Source of the DNA: Candidatus Bathyarchaeota archaeon
GTDB taxonomy: Archaea; Thermoproteota; Bathyarchaeia; Bathyarchaeales; Bathycorpusculaceae
Assembly (NCBI GenBank): GCA_963739305.1
Contig: CAVTZU010000015.1
Coordinates: 32,001 to 96,000 of the forward strand
Direction of reading: 5' to 3'
DNA length: 64,000 nucleotides
Positions 2,392 to 26,457 of this stretch are shown piece after piece (positions within the stretch are counted from its first letter, which is position 1; each line of letters opens with the position of its first letter). Below the pieces are notes generated by a model. It saw only the letters and a list, made by a program, of their open reading frames with translations. It was not told the origin of the DNA and searched no databases. The position numbers and the translations under genes are program-made.

Positions 2392-2865
2392 TTGGTTACT
2401 TTGATCGAATGGACTGCAATCCTGTCTGCTGTGGCAGGCCTGGCTGCAACAGTTTTCATTTTGCTCCAGTTTAGACACATGGAACAGCATAGAAACCTTG
2501 AGATTTCGATTAAGTTGTTTGAATGGGCAGAAACCGAGAGGCTTAGAAAAGCCTTCAGGTGGATAGAAGAAGAGTTCGAGTTTGAAAATTATGAGAAATA
2601 CAAGACAGAAGTGGAAAAGGACTTCGAGGTCAGCGACTACCCCTACGAAGTTGAAGCTTTCTTCGAGGAAGTTGGTTTCCTGGTTAACAAAAAGTTCGTC
2701 GATATAGATGTCATCGTAGATCGACTGGGTGCTTACATAGTTTCAAACTGGAAAAAGCTGGAACCATGGATACTCGCGGTGCGAAAAGAGAGGGGCGACA
2801 AAACGTTCGGGGAGCATTTTCAGAAGCTACGTGAAAAGACTGTTGCCTACATGAAAAAGACGTAG
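2392..2865 (+). CDS. DUF4760-like protein with N-terminal TM helix
   Basis: N-terminal TM segment, then FFEEVGFLV...IVSNWKKLEPWI...FGEHFQKL pattern. Confidence 0.6.
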   Translation: MVTLIEWTAILSAVAGLAATVFILLQFRHMEQHRNLEISIKLFEWAETERLRKAFRWIEEEFEFENYEKYKTEVEKDFEVSDYPYEVEAFFEEVGFLVNKKFVDIDVIVDRLGAYIVSNWKKLEPWILAVRKERGDKTFGEHFQKLREKTVAYMKKT

Positions 2866-3021
2866 AAAAGACCTGCAATAGCTTCATAGAGGAGTTTTAG
2901 CCGATATCAAGTTTCAATATATAAACGGTTGAATCCATCAAGCTTTTCGAAAATGGTGAAACGGTTATATTTCTGTTTGCGTACGCTAAGGAAATAGCAT
3001 GTTATGCGGAGACTTCTCATA

Positions 3022-3570
3022 ATGGATGAAGAGAACGAGGAGCAACAGCAAGCCGACGAGAGAATCGAGTCACTTCAGAACGCCTTGGAAACAGAGAAGC
3101 AACGTTCAGAAGACTACTTCACGCAGTTGAAATACGCTAGGGCAGATCTTGAGAACTTCAAGAAGAGATGTGATCGGCAGATTGATGATGCGAGAAAGTA
3201 CAGCAACGAACGCATTGTGGTTGGCTTGCTGGACGTTGTCGACGAGCTTGAATTGGCGATAGAAGCTGCTCGTTCATCCAACTCTACAGAAGCACTCGTT
3301 CAAGGCGTTGAAATGACCCTGAAGAAGCTTAGAAAGATCCTTGAAAATGAGGGAGTGCAACCGATAAAGAGCGTCGGCGAACCCTTCGACCCTCTGAAAC
3401 ACGATGTTATAGCCAAGACCGAAAAAGAGGGAGTCGAGGGATGCATGATAGTTGAAGAAGTGAGAAAGGGATACATGATGAGGGAAAAAGTGATTAGACC
3501 GAGTATAGTTAAGGTTGTCGTGCAACCTTCAAAATCACAAAAGGAGATGGATTCAAATGAGCAATGTTAA
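3022..3570 (+). CDS. grpE: Nucleotide exchange factor GrpE
   Basis: [36 protein letters not shown]; first gene of the dnaK operon. Confidence 0.95.
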
Positions 3571-5444
3571 ATCAGGAGAAAAAATCCTGGGAATAGATCT
3601 TGGAACAACCAACTCAGCGGCCGCCATCTACGAAGGCGGAAGATCCACGGTGATCCCGAGCGCTGAAGGACCGACAATGGCCGGGAAAATGTTCCCTTCA
3701 GTCGTGGCTTTCACCAAGGATGGCACACTTTTAGTGGGAGAATCCGCCAAGAGGCAAGCCACCGCAAACCCTGAGGGAACGATTTACGAAATAAAGAGAA
3801 AAATGGGAACTGACTACAAGGTCAACATAGCCGGGAAAGAATATACCCCGCAGCAAATCTCCGCGTTTATTCTGCAGAAGATAAAGAAAGACGCCGAGAC
3901 TTATTTGGGGACCGCGGTGAGGAAAGCCGTCATAACTGTTCCAGCCCACTTCAACGACAATCAGCGACAAGCAACGAAGGACGCAGGGGAAATAGCTGGT
4001 TTGGAGGTCGCCAGAATAATAAACGAGCCAACTGCAGCGTGCTTGGCTTATGGAATTGACAAACTCGAAAAAGAAATGAAGATACTTATTTTCAGCTTTG
4101 GCGGTGGCACCCATGACGTCACGATAATGGACTTCGGAAAAGGAGTCTTCCAAGTGCTTTCAACAAGCGGCGACACCCAGACAGGCGGAACCGACCTTGA
4201 CAAGGCCGTGACTGACTTTCTCATTGAGGAGTTTCAAAGACAGACGGGCGTCAACCTCCGCAACGACCGAACGGCTCTATCAAGACTGAAAGAAGCCTCG
4301 GAGAAAGCAAAGATAGAATTGTCAACACTGATGACCACCGACGTGGATCTGCCTTTCCTCTACAACGACGCTTCTGGACCCAAGCACCTCCACTTGACCC
4401 TGTCAAGAGCGAAGCTTGAATCGCTGGCTCAGCCGATAGTACAAAAGACCGAGCGCACGATGGTAAGGGCTCTCGAAGACGCGAAGCTCACTCCGAAAGA
4501 CATAGACAAAATAATCCTTATCGGCGGAATGACGAGAATGCCCTACGTGCAGAGATTTGTTGAGCAGATCATGGGCAGACCAGCAGAGAGGGGAATAGAC
4601 CCGATGGAATGCGTCGCCATCGGAGCCGCAATACAGGGCGCAGTGCTTACGGGCGAAGTGAAAGATCTGCTGTTACTGGACGTCACTCCATTGTCTCTTG
4701 GTGTCGAAACACTCGGAGGCGTATTCACGAGAATCTTGGAGAAAAACACGACTATCCCGACGAGGAGAAGCCAGATATTCACGACGGCGGCCGATTTTCA
4801 AACTGCCGTGACGATTCACGTTCTCCAAGGCGAACGTCCAATGGCATCTGACAACGTTTCTCTCGGCGTATTCAACTTGGAAGGCATTCCGCCTGCTCCG
4901 AGAGGTGTGCCGCAGATCGAAGTCACCTTTGACATTGATGCAAACGGAATTCTGAACGTGACTGCAAAAGACTTGGGCACCAAGAAAGAAGCAAAGATAA
5001 CCATAACGGCTTCAACGAAACTGTCGAAGGAAGAAAAGGAGCGATTGATCAGACAAGCAGAGGAGTTCGCTGAGCAAGACAAGAAGAAGCGTGAGACTGC
5101 AGACATAAGGAACAACGCTGACAACGCGATCTACACGGCAGAAAAAACGAAGAAAGACTTGGGAGAAAAGCTGACGCAAGATCAAAAGAACAGGATAGAC
5201 GCGGCTGTTTCCGCCCTCAAAGATGCGCTGGCAGGCACCGATGTCGACAAGATGAAAGGCAAAATCCGATGAACTCTCAAAGGTGCTCCAAGAAGTGGGA
5301 ACAGTCATTTACCAGCAGGCAGCTGCTGAACAAGCTAAGCAGCAGGGACAGCCTACCGCTGGAGCGGCAGGTCCTGAACAGGAACAGGAGCCTGGGCCAA
5401 GCGGAGACAGAGTCGTTGATTCAGAGGACTACAAGGTGAAGTAA
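3557..5444 (+). CDS. dnaK: Chaperone DnaK (Hsp70) with a +1 frameshift near 5255
   Basis: [37 protein letters not shown]; the C-terminus ([19 protein letters not shown]...[10 protein letters not shown]) continues in another frame to TAA 5442-5444. Confidence 0.95.
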
Positions 5445-8920: not shown

Positions 8921-10135
8921 ATGATCCAGGAAGCGAATTCGAGTAGTCGCGAGTCACGCAATTTTATTCTTCTGTTGATCATTATCTTCTTCACGACTTT
9001 TGCCAGCTCGATGGTGTCAGCTTCGCCAGTACCGTTCTTGTTGAAGAATCTTGCTGTGACAAGAGAAGCTTTCGCATCCTTCATCGGACTCATGGCATCC
9101 ATAAGCAGTGTTGCGATGATAACAGCAAATTTCGCCGGAGGATTCTTGGCAGACAGATTGGGAAGGAAGACCACGATTGGCTTGGGAGCCGGCCTGTTAG
9201 CGCCCAGCCTGTTTGCATACACCATCGCGCCCGGTGCCTTCTGGGTTATCGTCCTGTACTTCGTTCAAATGTTCTCAATTTCTCTGTTTCAACCAGCGTT
9301 CACAGCACTCGTAGCCGACATGAGCCGAGTGAGCTCACGAGGGAAAGCCTTCGGTTGGTTCAACTTGTTCTGGATTGGAAGCGCGATTCCAGGACCACTC
9401 ATAGGCGGACTTCTTGTTGATAATTTGGGACTTCATTTTCCCTTCATCACGGGTGCCCTCGTATCACTCGTCGGGCTGGTCGCCTGTGTTGGCCTAGCTG
9501 GAATTTCAGGCAGGACGGCATCAGCAGAACAGGTCGTTTCTGAAGTGGAAAATGAGAAGAGTCTGATGCCTTTCGGCAAAGTGATACTGATCTTTGGAAT
9601 GGTCGGTATGCTTTCAGGTCTGGCGAGTGGTTTGATTATACCGTTGAGCAGGCTTTACCCGATCGACATGCTGCACGTCACGGCTACTGAGTTAGGTCTC
9701 ATAATTTCACTCGGTTCCGCTCTTGTAACAGCCTTGGTTCAAATTCCAGGCGGAGGATTGACCGACAGGTTTGGAAGAAAGAAGATGATGCTGTTCAGTC
9801 TGTTGGGAGCGCCTTTCGTCGTTGCCCTTGCCTTCACTCATTCCGTCTTCGAGTTCACGCTGGTCTTTTCCGGAATGAGCGGCTTCGGCAACATAAGCGG
9901 TCCCGCCTATTCGGCTTGGCAGATGGAGCTGGTGCCCTGCAGCAGGAGAGCCATGGCCTCCGGGCTCATCAACGCTTTGACTGGAACAGGAATGTTCTTC
10001 GGCCCCTTCTTGAGCATATGGCTCTATCAATCCCAGCCTAGCGCTACTCTTGCGTTTGTTGCAGCCGCTATCCCGTGGGTTCTCAGTATTCCTCCGATCT
10101 TGAAGCTAAAAGAGACCAGAAATTCCACCATATAG
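8921..10135 (+). CDS. MFS transporter
   Basis: About 12 TM segments; motif A twice (GFLADRLGRK, GGLTDRFGRK). Confidence 0.92.
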   Translation: MIQEANSSSRESRNFILLLIIIFFTTFASSMVSASPVPFLLKNLAVTREAFASFIGLMASISSVAMITANFAGGFLADRLGRKTTIGLGAGLLAPSLFAYTIAPGAFWVIVLYFVQMFSISLFQPAFTALVADMSRVSSRGKAFGWFNLFWIGSAIPGPLIGGLLVDNLGLHFPFITGALVSLVGLVACVGLAGISGRTASAEQVVSEVENEKSLMPFGKVILIFGMVGMLSGLASGLIIPLSRLYPIDMLHVTATELGLIISLGSALVTALVQIPGGGLTDRFGRKKMMLFSLLGAPFVVALAFTHSVFEFTLVFSGMSGFGNISGPAYSAWQMELVPCSRRAMASGLINALTGTGMFFGPFLSIWLYQSQPSATLAFVAAAIPWVLSIPPILKLKETRNSTI

Positions 10136-15873: not shown

Positions 15874-16683
15874 TTATGCGTCGCAGTGTCGGTTGGTGTA
15901 TCGACCTAGGATTTTCTGCTTTTCTGCCTGAATGATTGGTGGAATCTCAGATAGAGACTGAATAATGTAATCAGGCTGCAAATTCGCTTCTGATCCGATA
16001 CGTTCTTGTATTTCGCTCAGGACTTCTTCGGGGAGGCTCTTCAGGGCGTCGTTGAAATTCGATTTCTCGACTGTTCCTTCGATCATTATGGCAACTCCTC
16101 CGGCTCCCTTCGCAGCCAACACATCGAGTATCAGGTCGCCAACCATGAAGAAATGTGCAACGCCCAGTTTCTTGGCCGCAAACAAGATGCCCTCTGGATC
16201 AGGTTTCAGTTTTCTAACGCTCTCCCGGGTCACCGTGGCATCAAAGAAGCCGCCTAAGCCGTGAATCTGGAAAACGATGGCGACGGCTTCCTTCGAGGTG
16301 TTGGTGACGAGCCCCAACTTCGCTCCAAGTCGTCTAAGGGTTTCAAGCGTAGAGACGCAGTCGGGAAAGAGTTTTGACTTTCTGGCGGAATCAAGCTCGT
16401 AGCGTCTGAGGAACTTCTCCATCTCTCTTTGAAACCGTCTGGTCTCCGCTTTCGTGAAATTTCCTTCAACGTACGCCTCTGCCTTGTTACGCATTATCGT
16501 TGCACGTTCTACTCCTTCAAGAATTTCAGCTGGCACTCCCAGCGCTAACAGTTTTCTTCGCGTATTGCGTCTGAACTCTAAGACGTGTTCATGAATTGAC
16601 CAGGGAGTCTGGACTAACGTGTCCTCTAGATCAAACAACACTGCAAAGTCGCTTGCTGCTTCCGACTTCTTCAGTTTGTTCAT
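15874..16683 (-). CDS. HAD-superfamily hydrolase
   Basis: FDLEDTL, VTN, KPDPEG, MVGDLILD motifs; the longer ORF extension overlaps the tRNA and is spurious. Confidence 0.88.
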   Translation of the reverse strand: MNKLKKSEAASDFAVLFDLEDTLVQTPWSIHEHVLEFRRNTRRKLLALGVPAEILEGVERATIMRNKAEAYVEGNFTKAETRRFQREMEKFLRRYELDSARKSKLFPDCVSTLETLRRLGAKLGLVTNTSKEAVAIVFQIHGLGGFFDATVTRESVRKLKPDPEGILFAAKKLGVAHFFMVGDLILDVLAAKGAGGVAIMIEGTVEKSNFNDALKSLPEEVLSEIQERIGSEANLQPDYIIQSLSEIPPIIQAEKQKILGRYTNRHCDA

Positions 16684-16765: not shown

Positions 16766-16925
16766 TGGTGTGGCCGGCCGGATTTGAACCGACGACCTAC
16801 GGGTCTCTCCGTGGTATGACTGTTCCAGAACTTCCTCATTCCCTCTCCGGTCGGTCGGTGGAAGTCCCTCGACTACACCTCTATCTCCCTTTACCACTTT
16901 CTGGAGCCCGTCGTCATACCTGACT
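16766..16925 (-). tRNA. 5'-truncated tRNA-Trp(CCA) copy (about nt 14-76 with CCA) carrying a 96-nt 37/38 intron (16805-16900)
   Basis: AGTCAGGTATGACG ACGGG CTCCAG/intron/A CCCGT AGGTC GTCGG TTCAAAT CCGGC CGGCCAC ACCA; CTCC/GGAG BHB helix; no 5' acceptor strand found nearby. Confidence 0.85.
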
Positions 16926-17022
16926 TAATGCTTAGTAATTCTATGATGTTGTTCATTGTTTGGTTCTGGTTGATGGTGTCTTTTGTCTCTATACCATGTG
17001 TTTCTTCTGGTTGGGTGCTCAA
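16891..17022 (-). CDS. Small ORF (43 aa) reading into the tRNA fragment
   Basis: TTG start after AAGGAAGG, overlapping the upstream stop (TTGA): MSTQPEETHG...LSIKSGMTTGSRKW*. Confidence 0.3.
   Translation of the reverse strand: MSTQPEETHGIETKDTINQNQTMNNIIELLSIKSGMTTGSRKW
16896..16919. repeat. 24-bp perfect direct repeat, copy 1 (att-like core)
   Basis: ACTTTCTGGAGCCCGTCGTCATAC, identical at 22374-22397. Confidence 0.9.
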
Positions 17023-17162
17023 TATTTCGCCTTCCTTATTGGTTGACTTGTTCTTTCTCGGATTGTGACCACTAGGACTTTGATTACTCCTCTTGGGGTT
17101 CGGTAGGTTCCTATGTGGTCAAGGGCTATTATCTGTTCTTCTGGATTCTCGGTTCGTAACAT
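17019..17162 (-). CDS. Small hypothetical protein (47 aa)
   Basis: MLRTENPEEQIIALDHIGTYRTPRGVIKVLVVTIRERTSQPIRKAKY*; protein-like composition, below the ORF-track cutoff. Confidence 0.4.
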   Translation of the reverse strand: MLRTENPEEQIIALDHIGTYRTPRGVIKVLVVTIRERTSQPIRKAKY

Positions 17163-17486
17163 ACATTACACATCCATTCACTTTCGTTGCGTTGACGCGA
17201 CGAGAAGGCAATACGCATTTCTAGCAGGGAGTCTAGAAGGAAGCTAAGCATAGTTGCAAGATTGGCTTCCGTACGGAATGAGAGACGACTTTTCCTCTTA
17301 AATTTCTAATGAGGGAAATGCCTATGCCTTCGAGGAGATAGTTCATGCGTCATTCAGTTTAGTCGTGGTTTCACGTTTAGCGATCGGGTGTTTGAGTGCC
17401 TGTTCTATTGTATTTTTTGTTCTATTAGTGTTGCACTTCCCGTTTTTCGCGTAGTGAGTGCCTGCGATTGACGCGCGCGCTTGGTT

Positions 17487-18125
17487 TTAGTAGTAGTATG
17501 TTACCAATACAGTTTCAGTTGCGTTGTCAACAGCGTTTGTATTGCCTACTTGGATCTCTATGTTAGCTGGAAGGACTGGGAACCATGCTGAGCCGTTTGA
17601 ACCGACGTTTACTGTGTTATCATATTTGGCCCATCCGTTATACACGTATGAAAGTTCAACGAAGGTATCGTTTGTCGATGAAGAAACATGCACAACGACT
17701 AAACCAGCAACGTCTGCAGAATAGTTCCAAGAAGTACTACTATTGGCTGGTTGACTTACCGCCTCATTTTCCACCCAATCCTTATAAAATCCAAGATTAA
17801 TTTTGATTTCAAGCAACCCCACTTGAGTTGAAATGTTATTCACTTCAGACAATAAGAGCGACATATGAGATGAGTCATAGACGATCGTGGCATTTTGTTC
17901 AGCAAGCTTAAAACTGTCAGCCGCAATCGTTTCGTTCTCAGCTATCACTTGTTCTTGGAGAGTTGTCAATTCAGTGTTCAAGGCGGAAATCGTGTTGTTC
18001 TTATCAGCTATGTAATATGCAAGCGCTCCACCTAAACCAGCTACTAGAATAATGCAGGCTGCTACGAGTGCGATGGCGACACTTCTTCTAACAACTTTCC
18101 TTTCATTGACTTTTGGTTCACTCAT
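17487..18125 (-). CDS. Membrane-anchored coiled-coil surface protein
   Basis: MSEPKV start, one TM helix, heptad region, beta-rich C-terminus with many NxS/T sequons. Confidence 0.75.
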   Translation of the reverse strand: MSEPKVNERKVVRRSVAIALVAACIILVAGLGGALAYYIADKNNTISALNTELTTLQEQVIAENETIAADSFKLAEQNATIVYDSSHMSLLLSEVNNISTQVGLLEIKINLGFYKDWVENEAVSQPANSSTSWNYSADVAGLVVVHVSSSTNDTFVELSYVYNGWAKYDNTVNVGSNGSAWFPVLPANIEIQVGNTNAVDNATETVLVTYYY

Positions 18126-18324
18126 TCTTGAATCCCTAGTTTGTCTTCTGTTGCTGTGCAGATTAAAGATTTCTGTGTTTGTCGGCTTTGCGTTAACGAT
18201 TCTGAGCCGTCGGCGAAGCGGAACGTCATGGTTGTCAAGTCTCGGGTCTGGTTTTGCAGTCGGTGTGAGAAATCTGATGAGGCTGTTGCGCGCGCAATGT
18301 GTCTCACGTGGCATCAGTGTGAAT

Positions 18325-19128
18325 TCAGGTTGTTTTCTTTGTAACATCGGACTTGAGGAGTCTGTAAGCTGCTATTAGAGTGAATACGATCGCGTAGACG
18401 GCTATGATCAACGACGCTTGGGCAAGGGCTCCAAGGTCACCTGCGGGAAGCACACTGGACGATGTTATCAGTTCACTCATGACAAGCGACGGGAAGTTTG
18501 TTGCTGCCCATGTTGGAATAGCCCGCGTGCTTATGCCATAGAGAAGGGTTAAGATCGGGCTTATGATGTATGAAGCGATAAGTATTGCTAAGGCCAACAG
18601 AATTGCGAGAGTGGTTCCTCTGAAGACTTCGCTGAACATGAATGATAAACAGAAGAAAATGAGAGAAGAATATACAATGGCCAAAAACATTATCGGAGCA
18701 AATTGGAGACCGTTCTGTGCACCAAACAATCCGAGTGAAAGGGCAACGCCTACAAAGGTTATCAAGGCTTCAACCATGGCTAACAAGGAGAATCCGCCCA
18801 AGAACTTCCCAGACATGTACTCAACCCGCGTAATGGGTTTGGAGAGCAATATGTCAGCCGTCCCGTGTTCATATTCTTCAGACATTGAACCGCCGCCAAC
18901 TATGATGGCTATCAACTGAACAAACAAGCCACCTTCCAGCACGCCGGTAATCCACACTAGGGACGCTTCATTCGTCAAGAAACCCTCTGCAAACAGCGCG
19001 TGCATTCCAGCCATTATCAATGTTTGAATTGCTATGGCCAGGATTATGAGGGCAAGAACTTTCTTCTTAGCCAGGGCTCTCCTCCACTCGTACCCAGCGA
19101 TTACAGCGACTCTTCCGAGGGCGTCCAT
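18325..19128 (-). CDS. ABC-2 type permease
   Basis: SEEYEHGTADILLSKPITR motif; about 6 TM segments. Confidence 0.9.
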   Translation of the reverse strand: MDALGRVAVIAGYEWRRALAKKKVLALIILAIAIQTLIMAGMHALFAEGFLTNEASLVWITGVLEGGLFVQLIAIIVGGGSMSEEYEHGTADILLSKPITRVEYMSGKFLGGFSLLAMVEALITFVGVALSLGLFGAQNGLQFAPIMFLAIVYSSLIFFCLSFMFSEVFRGTTLAILLALAILIASYIISPILTLLYGISTRAIPTWAATNFPSLVMSELITSSSVLPAGDLGALAQASLIIAVYAIVFTLIAAYRLLKSDVTKKTT

Positions 19129-19129
19129 G

Positions 19130-20068
19130 CTATTGACCTCCTTTTAGAGCTTGGAGATAAGCGTCTTCCAACGTAACCTTACGGAGGGTTAGGCCTAGCA
19201 ACACGCCTTTTTGTTTGAAGATTTCTGAGGAGATTTCGCCCCTCACGTCTTTTTTCTCCTTCAGCTCTATCGATAGCTTGTTTCCGTCCACCTTTACATC
19301 GTTCACGAACTCAAGCGCTTTAAGGCTTGAGACTATGTTTTCGGTTACTTTTTCAAGCTCGGCTTCCACTACCCATTGTTGAGTGAAAGCTTCCAGCATC
19401 TGTTCGATTGGTCCCGTGAAAACGATTTTTCCCTTGTTTATCATTCCTACGTGGGTGCAGATTCGCTGAACCTCGTCCAACAGGTGAGATGAAATAAAAA
19501 TTGTTTTGCCATCCTTTGAGAGTTTAGTGAAAAGGCTTCTGAAGTGAGCTGTGGCCTCTGGATCCATACCTATGGTGGGCTCATCCATTATCAGAACCAT
19601 TGGATCGTTGATAAGGGCAAGGGCCACAGACAGCCTCTGAACCATGCCTTTGCTGTAGTTTCCAATCTTCTTCTTTCCCCATTCTTTCAAACCGACAAGA
19701 TCTAGGAGCTGCTTAGTCTTTTCCTTTCTAGGCTGCATGGGCAACCCGAACATTTTGCCCATAAAGTCAAGCAACTGCTCTGCAGTGAAGAAAGTTTGAA
19801 GTGTTGGAAGCTCTGAAGCATACCCAACAAGTTGGAGCGCGTGAACGGGATCCTTTGAGGGATTTGCGCCAGCTATCTGAACTTCTCCTTGATTTGGTTT
19901 AAGGAGACCCAGCATAATCCTTATAGTAGTTGTTTTGCCCGCCCCGTTTGGTCCAAGATAGCCGTACACACAGCCTTTATCCACTTTGAAGGAAACAGAG
20001 TCCAAAGCCTCGAATTTTCCGTAGTACTTTGTCAGGTTTGAAACGCTCAAAACCGAAGTGGACGCCAA
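19130..20068 (-). CDS. ABC transporter ATP-binding protein
   Basis: GPNGAGKTT, YSKGMVQR, MDEPTIGMD, SSH. Confidence 0.93.
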   Translation of the reverse strand: MASTSVLSVSNLTKYYGKFEALDSVSFKVDKGCVYGYLGPNGAGKTTTIRIMLGLLKPNQGEVQIAGANPSKDPVHALQLVGYASELPTLQTFFTAEQLLDFMGKMFGLPMQPRKEKTKQLLDLVGLKEWGKKKIGNYSKGMVQRLSVALALINDPMVLIMDEPTIGMDPEATAHFRSLFTKLSKDGKTIFISSHLLDEVQRICTHVGMINKGKIVFTGPIEQMLEAFTQQWVVEAELEKVTENIVSSLKALEFVNDVKVDGNKLSIELKEKKDVRGEISSEIFKQKGVLLGLTLRKVTLEDAYLQALKGGQ

Positions 20069-20199
20069 AAAGATTACCCAGTTCTTAACTATCTTGCGTA
20101 GGCACGCCTAATAACATTTAGGGTTATCACCTATTCGTTGCTATACCTCTTGCTATTCCGCCGGCAGCGTTGCCTTCCTAATAACAAAACGCGCGCGCT

Positions 20200-20232
20200 A
20201 GCTGTTGTTTTGAGTTTTTGTGGGTTAGAGCG
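20200..20232. repeat. 33-bp imperfect direct repeat, copy 1
   Basis: AGCTGTTGTTTTGAGTTTTTGTGGGTTAGAGCG; 29/33 identical to 22148-22180. Confidence 0.7.
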
Positions 20233-20285
20233 TCATCTATAGTCTTATTAGATTAAATCCGACACTCCTAAAAGAGGAAGCAGTG

Positions 20286-21292
20286 ATGTCAGGTAGAGCT
20301 GTAGAAGTAGATCTGAGAAAGGTTAGACCAAACAGGTTCAATCCAAGGCTAGACTTCAATGAAGAAGACCTCAGGAATCTGGCAGATAGCATTCGAGAGA
20401 AAGGTCTTTTGCAGCCGATTATCGTCAGACCCGTAGACAATGAGTTTGAGGTCGTTGTCGGTGAAAGACGGTATAGGGCTGCCCAGAAAGCAGGGATGGA
20501 ACGGATTCCAGTGGTGATTCGAGAGTACTCAGACGAGGAGGTAATTGAACTAAGTCTGATTGAGAATATTCAGAGAACAGATCTAAGCGCGGTTGAGAAA
20601 GGTAACAGTTGCAAGCAACTTATGGAGAAATATCCTCAGAAGTTTCCGAATAAGGGAGCCATAGCGAAATCATTGAGAGTCTCTGAAACAACTATTTCGG
20701 CTTGGCTAGAGCTTGTTGAGGCGCCTAATGAGCTTCAGAGAATGATTGCTCCTGCAGGCAAAATCGGTGTTCCGAGAGAACAGGGGAAAATCGATTGGGA
20801 CACAGCGGTTACTATTACTAGGCAGATAGAACAACCAGATAGACAAGTATCAATCGCGAGGGAAATCGCTAGAAGACCAATTTACAGAAGACAGGCGAGG
20901 GAAGTAATATCAAAGGCTGCAAAACAGCCTGAGAGACCAATTGAACAGATATTCAAGGAGGTAGTCGAGGCTCCTTATGAGATGCCCTTTCGACTTGTAC
21001 ATATGAAACCGATTCTGGATGGAGAGAAAATTCAGAGTTCTAGAAAAGGCATTTCAGATCCTCGCGTCAAAATCGGATCAATAATACATGGGCAGTTTGG
21101 GAACCGAACTTTGCCACGTTGCGTGTCGTTTCGATGGTAAGAAAGCGTCTTGGAGAATTCACTGAAGAGGATGCAAAAAGGGAAGGTGGCTATACTCTCG
21201 CAGAATTCAAGAAGACTTGGAAGAATCTGCATGGTGATTGGAATGAGAACGAGTTCGTCTACGTCTTTGGCTTCCAACTGGTCAGGCAGTAG
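20286..21292 (+). CDS. ParB/Srx N-terminal domain + HTH fused to a C-terminal ASCH domain (frameshift at ~21090)
   Basis: GLLQPIIVRP, VGERRYRA, ENIQRTDL; then MPFRLVHMKPILDGEKIQSSRK / AVWEPNFATLRVVSMVRKRLGEFTEEDAKREGGYTLAEFKKTWKNLHGDWNENEFVYVFGFQLVRQ* in the shifted frame. Confidence 0.8.
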
Positions 21293-21300
21293 GCGATAGC

Positions 21301-22029
21301 ATGTCATGGCGGAAAGAGTCTATTTTAGTTTTGGTTAAGGCGGCACCCAATTGGAGCGACAAATATGGATCATACCTCGTTTGCACTGGTGGCATAACTA
21401 AATCAAATCAGTGGAGGCGCCTATATCCAATGCCTCTGGACTTTATCGTCGGAAAGGTACACCGATGGGACATGATAGAGGTCAACACTACAGAACCTGA
21501 ACATGATCCTCGTTCTGAGAGCAGAAAAATAGATCCAAGTTCAATTGTTGTTGGCGGAAGCTTTTCAAAAGACAAAGAGGAGCGTCGAGTGCTCTTGAAC
21601 AAGCTAGCTGAGAAATCTCTGGACGTGGCAATTGGAGAGAGACGGTCTATCATTCTGATCAAACCAGAGATAGTTGACTTCCACATAGTTGAAAGAAAAG
21701 ATAAGCCAGTGCAGCTTACGCTGAACGGTGAAGTGTTCAAGGAACAACCCTACAGAGACGTAAGCCTCTACTATCGGTGGAATTGTCCAGAACGGTGTCA
21801 TGTGTGCAGCAGACATCCTCACCACATGGAATGCTTCGATTGGGGTGCAGGCGTCCTTTGGAGCAGGTATAAGGCAGACAGAAAAGTCGCCGAGGAGAAG
21901 ATCACTGAAATGTGTTACGACAATATGAAAGAGAAATTCGATGCTTGGTTTGCTTTGGGAACACACAGTCGCCGTCCCTTTAGCAAGTGGATGGTAGTGA
22001 GTCTCTTGTGGATGAAGAAAGCGTTCTAG
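21301..22029 (+). CDS. Conserved hypothetical protein, dual-OB-fold-like, with a Cys/His cluster
   Basis: VKAAP..S.KY...VCTGG...WRRLYP, DPRSES, RSIILIKP, DWG, FALGTH; CPERCHVC..HPHH; starts 8 nt after the ParB-ASCH stop. Confidence 0.65.
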   Translation: MSWRKESILVLVKAAPNWSDKYGSYLVCTGGITKSNQWRRLYPMPLDFIVGKVHRWDMIEVNTTEPEHDPRSESRKIDPSSIVVGGSFSKDKEERRVLLNKLAEKSLDVAIGERRSIILIKPEIVDFHIVERKDKPVQLTLNGEVFKEQPYRDVSLYYRWNCPERCHVCSRHPHHMECFDWGAGVLWSRYKADRKVAEEKITEMCYDNMKEKFDAWFALGTHSRRPFSKWMVVSLLWMKKAF

Positions 22030-22147
22030 TCTCCTTTTGCGTGCGCGCTGTTTGGCGAAAGCCCGCGCAATCAAGTGAATGATGAGTAATCCTTTGGAAG
22101 TTCAGGAGCGCGCGTCTCTTTTTGCCATTCTTTTCGGCGTTTGTCTG

Positions 22148-22180
22148 AGTTGTTGTTTTCAATTTTTGTGGGTTGGAGCG
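22148..22180. repeat. 33-bp imperfect direct repeat, copy 2
   Basis: AGTTGTTGTTTTCAATTTTTGTGGGTTGGAGCG. Confidence 0.7.
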
Positions 22181-22244
22181 CGAGCGTGATGCGAGCGCGA
22201 CATAATGAGCGCGCGCTAAGGGGCGGGCTTGACTTGGAAAAGGG

Positions 22245-22445
22245 TGGTGGGGCCGGGCGGATTTGAACCACCGACCTTTACCCAGAGCAGTGCACGAAGC
22301 GCCGCTCCTACGGGTTTCTTCTGACAGCTCCAGAACCTCTTCATCCCTTTTTGAGGTCCGTAAACCCGTCACTACTTTCTGGAGCCCGTCGTCATACTTG
22401 ATCCGATCGATCGATCGATCGATCGTCTGCCTAGACTACGACCCC
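22245..22445 (-). tRNA. tRNA-Trp(CCA) with three introns (22398-22426, 22316-22378, 22278-22309)
   Basis: Removing 29+63+32 nt gives a 77-nt cloverleaf: GGGGTCG TA GTCTAGGCAGGTATGAC G ACGGG CTCCAGA CCCGT AGGTC GGTGG TTCAAAT CCGCC CGGCCCC ACCA. Confidence 0.88.
22374..22397. repeat. 24-bp perfect direct repeat, copy 2 (att-like core)
   Basis: Identical to 16896-16919. Confidence 0.9.
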
Positions 22446-22589: not shown

Positions 22590-22711
22590 GTTCGCCGGCC
22601 ATAGGGCGCGGGTCCCACCTGATCCCATACCGAACTCAGAAGTTAAACCGCGCTCCGTTTCCGGCTGTAGTATGGTCTTCGGCCATGTCAACCCGGGAAA
22701 GCTGGTAACCC
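22590..22711 (+). rRNA. rrf: 5S rRNA (stand-alone)
   Basis: GGCCATAG...GATCCCATACCGAACTCAGAAGTTAA 5S signature; terminal helix GTGGGGTT/AACCCCAC; ends approximate. Confidence 0.93.
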
Positions 22712-25326: not shown

Positions 25327-26457
25327 TTATCTTTTGATGTGGAACTTGTCGACAACGTTTTTTGCTTTTTCCCGTTTCCTTTGGAAATCGGCGAGGAACT
25401 CGTTGACTCTTGTTGCGAGTTCTTTCTTGCAGTCGCCGCACAGGGTTTCGCCGGACTTGCATTTCCGGTGTCTTTCTGCGAGTTTCTTGTCGTCTGGTTC
25501 GAAGAGGTAGAGGAAGTACTGGAAGACGGTGCAGATGTCAGGTTCGGCCCCGAGCTTTTTCTGTTCGGCGACGGTTCCTCTGCCGCCTGTGAAGGCTCTC
25601 CAGATTTTCTGCGTGACCACTTCGGGTCGGTCCGTGGTGAAAATCGCGGTTTCCGGTTCGGAGGCGTTCATTTTGCCGCCGACGCCCAGGCCTGGAAGGA
25701 AGCGGTTGTGAATCTGGGCGGGCTTGTAGTAGCCGAGTTTTTGGGCGATGTCGCGGGTTATTCGCCAGTACGGATCCTGGTCTATCGCGGCGGGGATGAG
25801 GCACGGAAGGTTTTCGCCCGTGAGTTTCTTGTGGATGAAGCATGGCACGGCCTGTACTGCTGGGTAGAAGATCCAGCCGAGGTTGGTGCTGTCTTGAAAA
25901 CCAAACGTTGCCTTGGCGGTTGAGTAGGTTATGCGTTTGCCCACTTCGAGTGCGATGTCGTAGAGGAGGTCGATGTCTTCCACGTCGTAGATTATGAAGG
26001 TGTCTTCAGGCTTGAACCCGAGGGCGATGACGTCGAGCGCGTTGTCATAAGCCATTTGTGTGGTTTCAGACAGGACGCGTTCATCGTCGATGACGAATTT
26101 CTCGTCGTCGGTCATCTGGAAGTAGAGCCTCGCTTTGAACGCGTCTTGGAGTTGTTTTGTGAATATCCATGGAACAAGATGCCCGATGTGGACTGGTCCC
26201 GATGGGCCTCGTCCGGTGTAGAGTACGAATTTGATGCCCTTGTCATACAGGTCGAGTACGGTGTCTAGGTCTCGGTGGCTGAAGAAGAGTTCTCGGCGCA
26301 GTTGGAGGTGCACGCCGCCCATGTATTTTCCGAGTCTCTGACGTAATTGTTCTGTCAAGGGTTGTGTTCCGAAGTCTTTTATGAGTCGTTCATAGTCGAC
26401 TTTGCCCTTGACTTCCCATGGGGTAACGATCATCTCGTTCTTTTCTTCATCGGTCAA
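25327..26457 (-). CDS. trpS: Tryptophan-tRNA ligase
   Basis: VTPWEV, YTGRGPSGPVHIGH, DQDPY, KMNAS. Confidence 0.97.
   Translation of the reverse strand: MTDEEKNEMIVTPWEVKGKVDYERLIKDFGTQPLTEQLRQRLGKYMGGVHLQLRRELFFSHRDLDTVLDLYDKGIKFVLYTGRGPSGPVHIGHLVPWIFTKQLQDAFKARLYFQMTDDEKFVIDDERVLSETTQMAYDNALDVIALGFKPEDTFIIYDVEDIDLLYDIALEVGKRITYSTAKATFGFQDSTNLGWIFYPAVQAVPCFIHKKLTGENLPCLIPAAIDQDPYWRITRDIAQKLGYYKPAQIHNRFLPGLGVGGKMNASEPETAIFTTDRPEVVTQKIWRAFTGGRGTVAEQKKLGAEPDICTVFQYFLYLFEPDDKKLAERHRKCKSGETLCGDCKKELATRVNEFLADFQRKREKAKNVVDKFHIKR

Follow-up and report, generated by a model that had tools for sequence, protein, structure and literature searches.

A three-intron tRNA-Trp gene and its headless partner as probable remains of an integrative element in Bathyarchaeia

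Introduction

Why would an archaeal chromosome carry two same-strand copies of one tRNA gene, with different introns and with one copy lacking its 5′ end? The question is raised by a 64,000-nucleotide (nt) stretch of Candidatus Bathyarchaeota archaeon (Bathyarchaeia; GenBank assembly GCA_963739305.1, contig CAVTZU010000015.1, positions 32,001 to 96,000), hereafter the window, in which an intact tRNA-Trp gene (copy A) and a headless one (copy B) enclose a small island of genes. The origin of several introns at odd positions in archaeal tRNA genes is an old question, and this locus bears on it. We consider it likely that the region is the decayed remains of a small (~4–7 kb) integrative element of Bathyarchaeia that targets tRNA-Trp, with B as its right-hand attachment junction (attR). 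An earlier, sequence-only reading of the same DNA had offered two accounts, an incoming element that swapped in a 3′ tRNA half with other introns and a trans-spliced split tRNA.

Coordinates without a prefix are window positions. G000 denotes this assembly (2.3 Mb, 97% complete, bin contamination 7.8%) and C-numbers such as C1, C15 and C25 its contigs; G-numbers are genomes of relatives, and L-numbers are relatives' loci or contigs taken from genomes or metagenomes.

An intact and a headless tRNA-Trp

Copy A (22245–22445, minus strand) is a tRNA-Trp(CCA) and, by profile search, the only full tRNA-Trp gene in the assembly. With boundaries set by relatives that lack one or another insert, it is organized, all on the minus strand, into exon 1 (22445–22427, 19 nt), a D-loop intron (22426–22398, 29 nt), exon 2 (22397–22379, 19 nt), an anticodon intron of "class 1" (22378–22316, 63 nt), exon 3 (22315–22310, 6 nt), a variable-region intron (22309–22278, 32 nt) and exon 4 with CCA (22277–22245, 33 nt). 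The spliced 77-nt form is called by ARAGORN as tRNA-Trp(cca) with a normal cloverleaf and a fully paired acceptor stem containing one G-U pair, which bears out the intact three-intron gene of the sequence-only reading. The D-loop intron contains five repeats of a four-letter palindromic unit and forms a 9-bp hairpin in RNAfold; other D-loop intron alleles are of similar length with interrupted repeats.

The anticodon intron of A is 60/63 identical to the G005 allele, and its variable-region intron, absent from G001, G009, G010 and B, matches G005 at 32/32 letters; the last 71 letters of A are identical to G005 while the surrounding DNA is ~75% identical. Compared with the tRNA gene behind the integrase of L150, A is 91.6% identical over 143 aligned letters comprising exon 1, the D-loop intron, exon 2 and the anticodon intron.

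Copy B (16766–16922, minus strand) is recovered at E 2e-20 by a tRNA-Trp 3′-part profile, built from 50 distinct tRNA-Trp genes and run with nhmmer against the 2.3-Mb assembly. A and B are the only full-length matches; the remaining ones (E 4e-4 and weaker) cover only the T arm and acceptor end, several of them at other tRNA genes. Homology of B to tRNA begins at 16922, which is D-loop position 17, and the first 16 nt are missing; the earlier reading had correctly placed a second same-strand copy 5.3 kb downstream and had put the loss at ~13 nt. On the minus strand B begins with the 13-nt attachment (att) core defined below (16910–16922, D-loop/D-stem positions 17–29) and continues through exon 2 (16919–16901), a 96-nt anticodon intron (16900–16805), exon 3 (16804–16799) and exon 4 with CCA (16798–16766). 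Segment comparison confirms that it contains neither the D-loop insert nor the insert in the variable region (43/44).

The bulge-helix-bulge motif of B is canonical by inspection and by folding, and that of A has one mismatch in its central helix, in agreement with the earlier remark that the different, 96-nt intron of B has the better motif. The T-stem and acceptor differences described before are equally real: the T stems of A and B differ through compensated changes, and at acceptor position 71 B has A where 9/9 relatives with a complete 3′ end have C. Since this position is otherwise invariant in those nine relatives, the A of B represents one derived change; judged from the letters, it would create a mismatch in the acceptor stem and does not point to a partner whose 5′ strand differs. 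The longest exact run shared by A and B is 24 nt (22397–22374 versus 16919–16896) and consists of conserved exon 2 plus five intron letters. The closest alleles to B are full genes in L038 (0.79), L078 (0.78) and L042 (0.73). Across relatives, tRNA-Trp falls into two allele classes: an A-like class with the variable-region insert, and a B-like class without it that has a different, often long, anticodon insert. Because A and B belong to different classes, B is not a local copy of A.

The 5′ junction of B is found in public sequencing data. Contigs from four public runs in three studies cross 16922 with 0–3 differences (spanning 16775–16976, 16775–17219, 16775–17246 and 16826–17040), which disfavours a chimeric junction. 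Apparent 5.5-kb "skips" starting from 16798 have other letters between their two sides and represent tRNA-Trp alleles of other organisms. The public-run contigs give little or no cover of 20338–22024, and a joint from 20214 to 22164 connects two copies of a short repeat and has only 24 letters on its shorter side; nothing is concluded from either.

These genes are easily overlooked. Default ARAGORN reports 0 tRNAs in the window, and its intron-permitting mode calls A as tRNA-Ala(cgc) with a 123-nt intron, a misnaming of tRNA-Trp. Rfam returns only a 5S rRNA in the window and, at E up to 1, a partial tmRNA-like match on the 3′ end of A. Standard tools thus miss or misname such tRNA-Trp genes, and the genomes look as if they had no tRNA-Trp.

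As a separate observation, part of the anticodon intron is complementary to the anticodon-loop region in both copies (22335–22327 with 22385–22377 in A, 9 nt; 16830–16824 with 16905–16899 in B, 7 nt), and this stretch is conserved in both allele classes. It is reminiscent of the guide-RNA intron of euryarchaeal tRNA-Trp; Rfam gives no match.

The leader of copy B is the 5′ region of an integrase gene

Directly upstream of B lies a unit of ~550 nt (16923–17473, minus strand) that corresponds to the promoter and 5′ region of an integrase gene. It comprises a promoter-like conserved block near 17150–17400, followed by an open frame (ATG at 16956–16954) into the att core; the last codons are conserved, and by translation the frame runs in phase into the core ATG. 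Copies of this leader unit are present in 6/11 genus genomes (this one and 5/10 others), and similarity stops at the same letter in 9/9 aligned copies, whatever comes next. In L120 the unit stands directly before a 303-amino-acid (aa) integrase of PF00589 type, and in L127 its frame is in phase with the core ATG.

The island itself contains no integrase homologue by tblastn at C15:48.7–54.4 kb, and none was identified among its five open reading frames (ORFs) with Pfam, PADLOC or PHROG. Two minus-strand ORFs (21980–22372 and 21604–22074) were considered as an integrase C-terminal part behind A and were rejected, with no Pfam and no tblastn match. The description "integrase-free" given earlier thus fits a secondary state of the island, as the integrase promoter and first codons still stand directly upstream of B.

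Further leader-unit copies occur in the assembly on C25 (91%) and, more weakly, on C10 and at C15:10.4 kb. Copies in the relatives G004 (C143), G002 (C5), G001 and G005 had been taken by eye for leaders continuing into decayed tRNA-Trp; nhmmer gave no match there at E up to 10, and no such continuation is claimed. The C25 copy (C25:12327–15790) likewise stops at the letter common to all, but what it adjoins is the upstream region of a 2-oxoacid:ferredoxin oxidoreductase beta-type gene, with NosD-like and SIR2_2 genes and a 60-nt repeat behind it; a right-hand junction formed at a secondary site is a possible reading. The recombinase has more than ten homologues elsewhere in the assembly (for example C15:3468–5850, C24:3547–4380, C13:2375–3154, C10:6128–6661 and C25:17967–18833), several of them adjoining tRNA-Pro or tRNA-Val genes, and they are probably further integrated elements with other targets.

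Complete elements in relatives

Relatives retain the parts that are missing here. Read in tRNA sense, L082 contains 5S rRNA and promoter, tRNA-Trp positions 1–29 that pass without interruption into a 318-aa ORF whose ATG lies inside the tRNA-Trp letters (the core), and then an intact tRNA-Trp whose D-loop insert measures 30 nt. This ORF encodes a tyrosine recombinase (PF00589, 70.9 bits against a Pfam cut-off of 27.1 bits) whose best NCBIfam model is archaeal XerA, matched over positions 2–254 of 263. L126 has the same left-half layout (69 bits), and a headless tRNA-Trp with its leader is found on a separate contig, L115, of the L082 genome. PF16795 (Phage_integr_3) gave no match at E up to 0.1 in the recombinases of L082, L126 and L127.

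A scan for exon 1 through 332 family genomes (131 positive) found it twice on one contig in G244, G385 and G457, and on two contigs in G452. L127, from G457, holds a whole element on a single contig: exon 1 plus core (2390–2420), a 318-aa recombinase ORF (2411–3367; PF00589, 68.1 bits), tRNA-Trp with a 29-nt D-loop insert (3421–3592), ~5.3 kb of cargo (~3.6–8.9 kb), the upstream unit (from 8937), whose 36 codons share the frame of the core ATG at 9045, and a headless copy (9040–9236). The core shared by its left junction (attL) and attR is 16 nt, and the core ATG is in frame both in the stub and in the 318-aa ORF. L140 and L152 also hold a headless copy, which puts the size of their elements at ~4.4–5.9 kb. 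Two-core genomes in the order sample did not add cases: G178 proved to be a contig overlap, G205 and G115 have two full genes each, and a one-mismatch core match in G004:C22 is coding-like DNA and attributable to chance.

Among a set of 84 metagenome or viral loci with recombinase homologues, exon 1 stands directly before the integrase ATG in 22; 5/84 are too short upstream to judge, and the other 57 have different upstream DNA, which often has the core's first seven letters at its end. These layout counts are not independent, several of the 22 exon-1 contigs being near-identical to one another. A tRNA-Trp with a 29–31-nt D-loop insert follows the recombinase in 13/22 exon-1 loci at a distance of 30–1074 nt (30–83 nt in 11/13). 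Seven of the nine misses have <400 nt of sequence at that place, leaving L160 and L163 as true misses.

The left junction carries tRNA positions 1–29 only and the right one positions 17–76 only, neither being a whole gene, and the severed 5′ part of the recombinase consists in relatives of the promoter and the first 13–36 codons. All six headless copies (B, L127, L037, L140, L152 and L115) start at the same letter and lack a D-loop insert. In all eight alleles that have a D-loop insert it occupies the same place, three letters into the core, and measures 25–30 nt in the seven others; in A it separates the first 3 from the last 10 core letters. On the junctions compared in L082, L126 and L127, the recombination site is the 13–16-nt D-loop/D-stem core and not the 24-nt run, which stands as a perfect shared stretch and falls as the site of recombination. 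Integration in the complete relatives thus breaks the host tRNA-Trp, and the element brings a whole replacement gene.

L037 is a sister state of this window: an intact copy there lacks the D-loop insert and is followed by cargo of 1.9 kb and by a headless copy. Its intact copy and that of L082 are 97.6% identical over 123 nt with flanks at 70–76%; by this comparison, element-borne tRNA-Trp alleles move between hosts.

Two variants were met on the side. In L051 and L066 the tRNA-Trp insert is not at the usual D-loop place but elsewhere in the D arm, behind letter seven or eight of exon 2. In L145, L146 and many of the loci with other upstream DNA, related recombinases have the first seven core letters ahead of them and other DNA beyond; for L145 and L146, whose upstream frame continues into the enzyme, the picture is that of an unsplit gene with a different target.

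Proposed history of the locus

The first part of the course of events is visible in the complete relatives. Their recombinase gene bears the attachment core (tRNA-Trp 17–29) at its own 5′ end, with its ATG within the core. Recombination with the host gene generates a left junction in which the host promoter and tRNA 1–29 are fused to the recombinase, and a right junction in which the recombinase promoter and its first 13–36 codons are fused to host tRNA from position 17 to CCA. The broken host gene is replaced by the element's own complete tRNA-Trp, which usually lies 30–140 nt behind the recombinase and has a 25–31-nt intron inside the core. This intron may keep the recombinase from cutting the element's own tRNA, and may also make the new gene a poor target for further elements. 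In most of these loci the short spacer between recombinase and tRNA leaves little room for a promoter, and the replacement tRNA is thus probably read together with the recombinase, that is, from the host tRNA promoter after integration. The 318-aa recombinase may be active despite lacking the severed upstream part.

In this window the left junction and the recombinase would have been lost afterwards, likeliest by recombination between the two 19-nt copies of exon 1. The upstream spacer of A can be aligned with the spacers of relatives, as this deletion path predicts. Copy A would then join the promoter and first exon of the host to the D-loop intron, the exons and the other two introns of the element; since complete relatives carry a whole replacement tRNA-Trp, all of A beyond exon 1 is most likely element-derived. 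Copy B, the displaced 3′ part of the host gene on the attR side, would carry a single intron of another kind, none in the variable region and now one acceptor mismatch, with no 5′ part and presumably no function. The host tRNA-Trp would have passed from one intron to three in one event, and the cargo would have become a fixed island. That the intron set of tRNA-Trp was altered by an incoming element, making this a visible route to intron gain, was part of the sequence-only reading and is retained; the swap of a 3′ half is given up, since the relatives carry a whole replacement gene.

Several points weigh against this reading. The contiguity of A and B over 5.3 kb comes from the assembly alone, the public-run contigs being too short to link them. 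With no integrase or left junction in the window by tblastn, the deletion step is drawn from relatives. The allele of A, with its variable-region intron, was not seen behind any integrase, and element-borne matches end at position 139 of A. The identity of its D-loop intron to other alleles (25/29 for G010, 23/29 for G008 and 20/29 for G005) indicates no single source. That the three inserts of A are removed from the RNA is likewise deduced from relatives, in which each is either present or absent at a single exact position. The stub ORF of L120 is not in frame with the integrase, and the upstream codons may thus be a separate small ORF and not the integrase N-terminus. A free (circular) form with this core was not seen: viral contigs gave 0 matches to the 20-nt core, and the 57 loci with different upstream DNA have other cores. 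Finally, the ABC gene pair of the island is chromosomal elsewhere in three relatives, and part of the island may thus be a later rearrangement.

The broader generalization is held tentatively, with slightly more doubt than belief: that a family of elements with XerA-like recombinases is widespread in Bathyarchaeia, gained its type I layout independently of SSV, pTN3 and pT26-2, and destroys the single host tRNA-Trp, so that the cell comes to rely on the intron-armoured copy of the element, which acts as an addiction and immunity device. If true, the mosaic of tRNA-Trp intron sets across Bathyarchaeia would be explained by repeated integration and decay, and would provide a direct, testable case for tRNA introns arising at, and protecting, integration sites. 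A series is visible in natural sequences, from complete elements through a recombinase-less state (this window) to genes that keep only the D-loop intron. With an intron placed exactly in the recombination core, the protection idea could be tested at the bench with one enzyme and two substrates.

Alternative explanations

The nearest competitor, which we regard as unlikely, is a classical 3′-half swap, in which an attP spanning tRNA-Trp 17–76 recombines with the host gene within the 24-nt run; on this view A would combine the 5′ part of the host, D-loop intron included, with the 3′ part of the element, B would combine the element's leader with the host 3′ part, and no separate replacement gene would be involved. 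Its topology fits an intact copy, an island and a headless copy on the same strand, and this is the mode of known tRNA-targeting elements as set out in a review (PMC8371274). Among the alleles compared, that of G010 has the D-loop intron nearest to the one in A (25/29), and the 3′ part of A equals G005; yet 25/29 versus 23/29 is a weak difference in a repeat-rich intron. In the complete relatives, moreover, tRNA identity at the left junction ends after position 29 and passes straight into the integrase, a separate whole tRNA gene stands behind that integrase, and no locus was found with an attP of 17–76. This had been the initial model, and it was dropped on the layouts of L082 and L127. An ordinary rearrangement without any mobile element, leaving a decaying partial tRNA-Trp duplicate by illegitimate recombination at a 5-nt microhomology, is very unlikely. 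It would suit a downstream region that varies in nearly every genus member, an ABC pair that is chromosomal elsewhere in relatives, and the lack of a clear GC shift; it leaves unexplained why six headless copies from different genomes and metagenomes share one junction letter and have homologous units upstream, why an exon-1-fused integrase occupies the locus in L082, L126 and L127, the contigs of L127, L140 and L152 also bearing the headless copy, and why A and B are of different allele classes.

Still less likely is an assembly chimera that joined the tRNA-Trp alleles of two strains in one contig of the metagenome-assembled genome. The bin contamination of 7.8%, some duplicated contig ends, and the presence in the runs of other tRNA-Trp alleles that share the T arm (joints from 16798 to ~22300 with other letters between) would allow it; against it, the 5′ junction of B does not lie at a repeat and is crossed in four runs of three studies with 0–3 differences, A and B share a run of just 24 nt, and the same architecture occurs on single contigs in other genomes. 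We give least credence to B as the 3′ half of a split tRNA-Trp, trans-spliced to a 5′ piece encoded elsewhere, which was the second account in the sequence-only reading. B does keep a canonical bulge-helix-bulge, a paired T stem and CCA, and a 16-mer at C1:9950 (minus strand) offers the predicted acceptor with two mismatches to exon 1; but the stretch around that 16-mer is repeated and coding-like, chance would yield about 1.2 such matches (an estimate), and its complementarity to the leader of B is 6 nt, away from the junction. The other near-matches to exon 1, of 16 in this 97%-complete assembly, are A, other tRNAs and coding DNA, none with a fitting trailer. The 12-letter 5′ pattern proposed earlier for a genome search gave 2 matches, and looser patterns 41 and 123, none tRNA-like. 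The best complement elsewhere to the 60-nt leader is 14 nt (E 0.34). The acceptor is one letter off compared with 9/9 relatives, the leader is the stub of an integrase gene, and A already supplies tRNA-Trp; with no 5′ piece in the assembly, the split-tRNA account finds no support.

Comparison with known integrative elements

A close precedent is tRNA-Thr(GGU) of Caldiarchaeum subterraneum, for which intron gain and the scattering of fragments via a mobile element were proposed (Sugahara et al. 2012, PMC3293823), a case that the review also cites as a proposed mechanism (PMC8371274). Both loci have an intact multi-intron tRNA and a fragment with fewer introns as direct repeats, separated by an insert of ~2 kb there (PMC3293823) and 5.3 kb here, and both have a multi-copy block beside the fragment, non-coding in Caldiarchaeum (PMC3293823). 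Its authors suggested that the att site of the element brought the extra intron, which may prevent further integration (PMC3293823). The two cases differ in geometry: in Caldiarchaeum a 5′ fragment lies upstream, the element supplies positions 1–27 and the tRNA is rebuilt at the junction (PMC3293823), whereas here a 3′ fragment lies downstream, relatives supply the whole gene and both junctions are incomplete. The recombinase of the Caldiarchaeum case was a classifier prediction only (PMC3293823), whereas relatives of the present element have a clear PF00589 enzyme whose gene is fused to exon 1. The Sugahara model includes a recombinase in the inserted DNA; here it is absent from the island and present in relatives. 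The lineage here is Bathyarchaeia, and several stages of decay are visible.

The layout also resembles type I (SSV-type, "suicidal") archaeal integrases, represented by SSV1, pTN3 and pT26-2 (Badel et al. 2021, PMC8371274; MBE 2020, PMC7253208). In these, as here, attP lies within the integrase gene and tRNA genes are targeted (PMC8371274); with attP inside the gene, integration puts the upstream part and the rest at opposite ends of the element. This separation into int(N) and int(C) is found in L127, and the window keeps the stub side only; a true fusion protein is uncertain, since the frames differ in L120. Known type I families carry PF16795 and are thought to have a single origin, according to the review (PMC8371274), whereas the enzymes here have PF00589 only, with XerA as best model, and the severed part is short, the 318-aa ORF starting at the core ATG. 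The review also states that all known integrations restore an uninterrupted tRNA (PMC8371274); here it is not restored. pTN3-like elements of Thermococcales resemble the present one in that the working tRNA is transcribed, once integration has taken place, from a foreign promoter (PMC8371274). With pTN3 the tRNA is rebuilt from an att site that holds the 5′ half (PMC8371274), whereas here there is a 13–16-nt core and a separate tRNA gene behind the integrase. The integration mode in the complete relatives is one that breaks and replaces an essential single-copy tRNA gene without rebuilding it.

Randau and Soll proposed that tRNA introns and split genes protect against integration (as related in PMC3218864 and PMC3293823). 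An intron placed exactly in the attachment site agrees with this idea, with the difference that it sits on the element's own tRNA copy, so that the first beneficiary would be the element. The split tRNAs of Nanoarchaeum, Caldivirga, Staphylothermus and others (Chan et al. 2011, PMC3218864) resemble B in being lone tRNA pieces with an upstream leader; unlike them, as far as that account goes (PMC3218864), B has neither a partner piece nor a leader–trailer helix, and the genome has an intact gene for this tRNA. The review makes no mention of Bathyarchaeota (PMC8371274), and titles and abstracts on Bathyarchaeota tRNA introns contained nothing on this subject; a description may exist in provirus surveys of Bathyarchaeia or their supplements. 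The tRNA-targeting integrative element and element-mediated intron gain (proposed in 2012) are known kinds. The new variants are a tRNA gene that is broken and replaced, an intron inside the core, and a XerA-like enzyme with a type I layout.

Host flanks and island cargo

The host side of the locus is conserved. A 5S rRNA (22591–22710, plus strand; Rfam RF00001, 69.3 bits) lies 145 nt from A and neighbours tRNA-Trp in relatives too, and 5S/DUF1512 synteny holds in 31/31 relatives searched; in 10 relatives the tRNA-Trp beside 5S opens with one and the same exon 1. On the other side a HAD hydrolase gene (15874–16683, minus strand; Pfam PF00702) forms the host flank, and in G004 a HAD gene lies ~300 nt from the single tRNA-Trp. 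The 3′ flanks place headless copies beside host genes (in L042, in L023, and at the HAD gene), an arrangement that does not discriminate between models. The DNA downstream of tRNA-Trp is different in nearly every genus member and consists of ordinary genes, such as a P-type ATPase in G001, G002 and G008 and a glycyl-radical enzyme pair in G005 and G009.

The island holds five ORFs. A 242-aa candidate defence protein, PDC-M19B (21301–22029, plus strand), matches its PADLOC model over the full length (E 1.9e-28) as well as phrog_25907, and no relative of it was seen in a scan of genome contigs. It is accompanied by a ParB_N-domain protein (20283–21140, plus strand; Pfam PF02195, E 5e-33) that gave no match to any PDC-M19A model in PADLOC. 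An ABC ATPase (19130–20068, minus strand) and an ABC-2 permease (18325–19128, minus strand), both assigned by Pfam, are followed by an ORF without family (17487–18347, minus strand; no Pfam, PADLOC or PHROG match), which probably encodes a membrane-anchored protein with its true start near 18125. The ABC-2 pair (18325–20068) is 89% identical to a pair at another locus in G001, versus ~76% for the flanking genes; in G001, G002 and G008 it is a syntenic chromosomal pair between blocks mapping to G000 C10:61–69 kb and C26:33.7–35.2 kb. Either the pair moved into the island or it travels. There is no clear GC shift across the region.

Among related cargo, L037 encodes a PDC-S31-like protein (E 2e-19); that of L140, L152 and L127 gave no informative Pfam or PADLOC match, and no replication gene was recognised in it. 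"Integrase-free" islands by such tRNA-Trp genes can be read as fixed element cargo, with candidate defence genes here and in L037.

Two repeats and one further gene were noted in passing. A ~60-nt repeat lies shortly upstream of genes at 22148–22207 and 20191–20232, with further copies in G000 at C25:15733–15786, C30:56–115, C28:33864–33923, C8:10939–10999, C26:12673–12712, C26:13917–13961 and C15:7076–7129; copies in the assembly are 82–98% identical (most at least 92%), others occur in same-genus genomes, and the one in C25 precedes the SIR2_2 gene. It may be a shared promoter/leader module or a small mobile repeat. A ~70-nt repeat (18111–18183) occupies the upstream part of ORF 17487–18347 and has at least 10 copies (C1, C18, C20, C22, C23, C26, C28 and C32). 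About 3 kb from the tRNA-Trp locus, at 25327–26457, lies a gene for a Trp/Tyr-family class I tRNA synthetase (PF00579).

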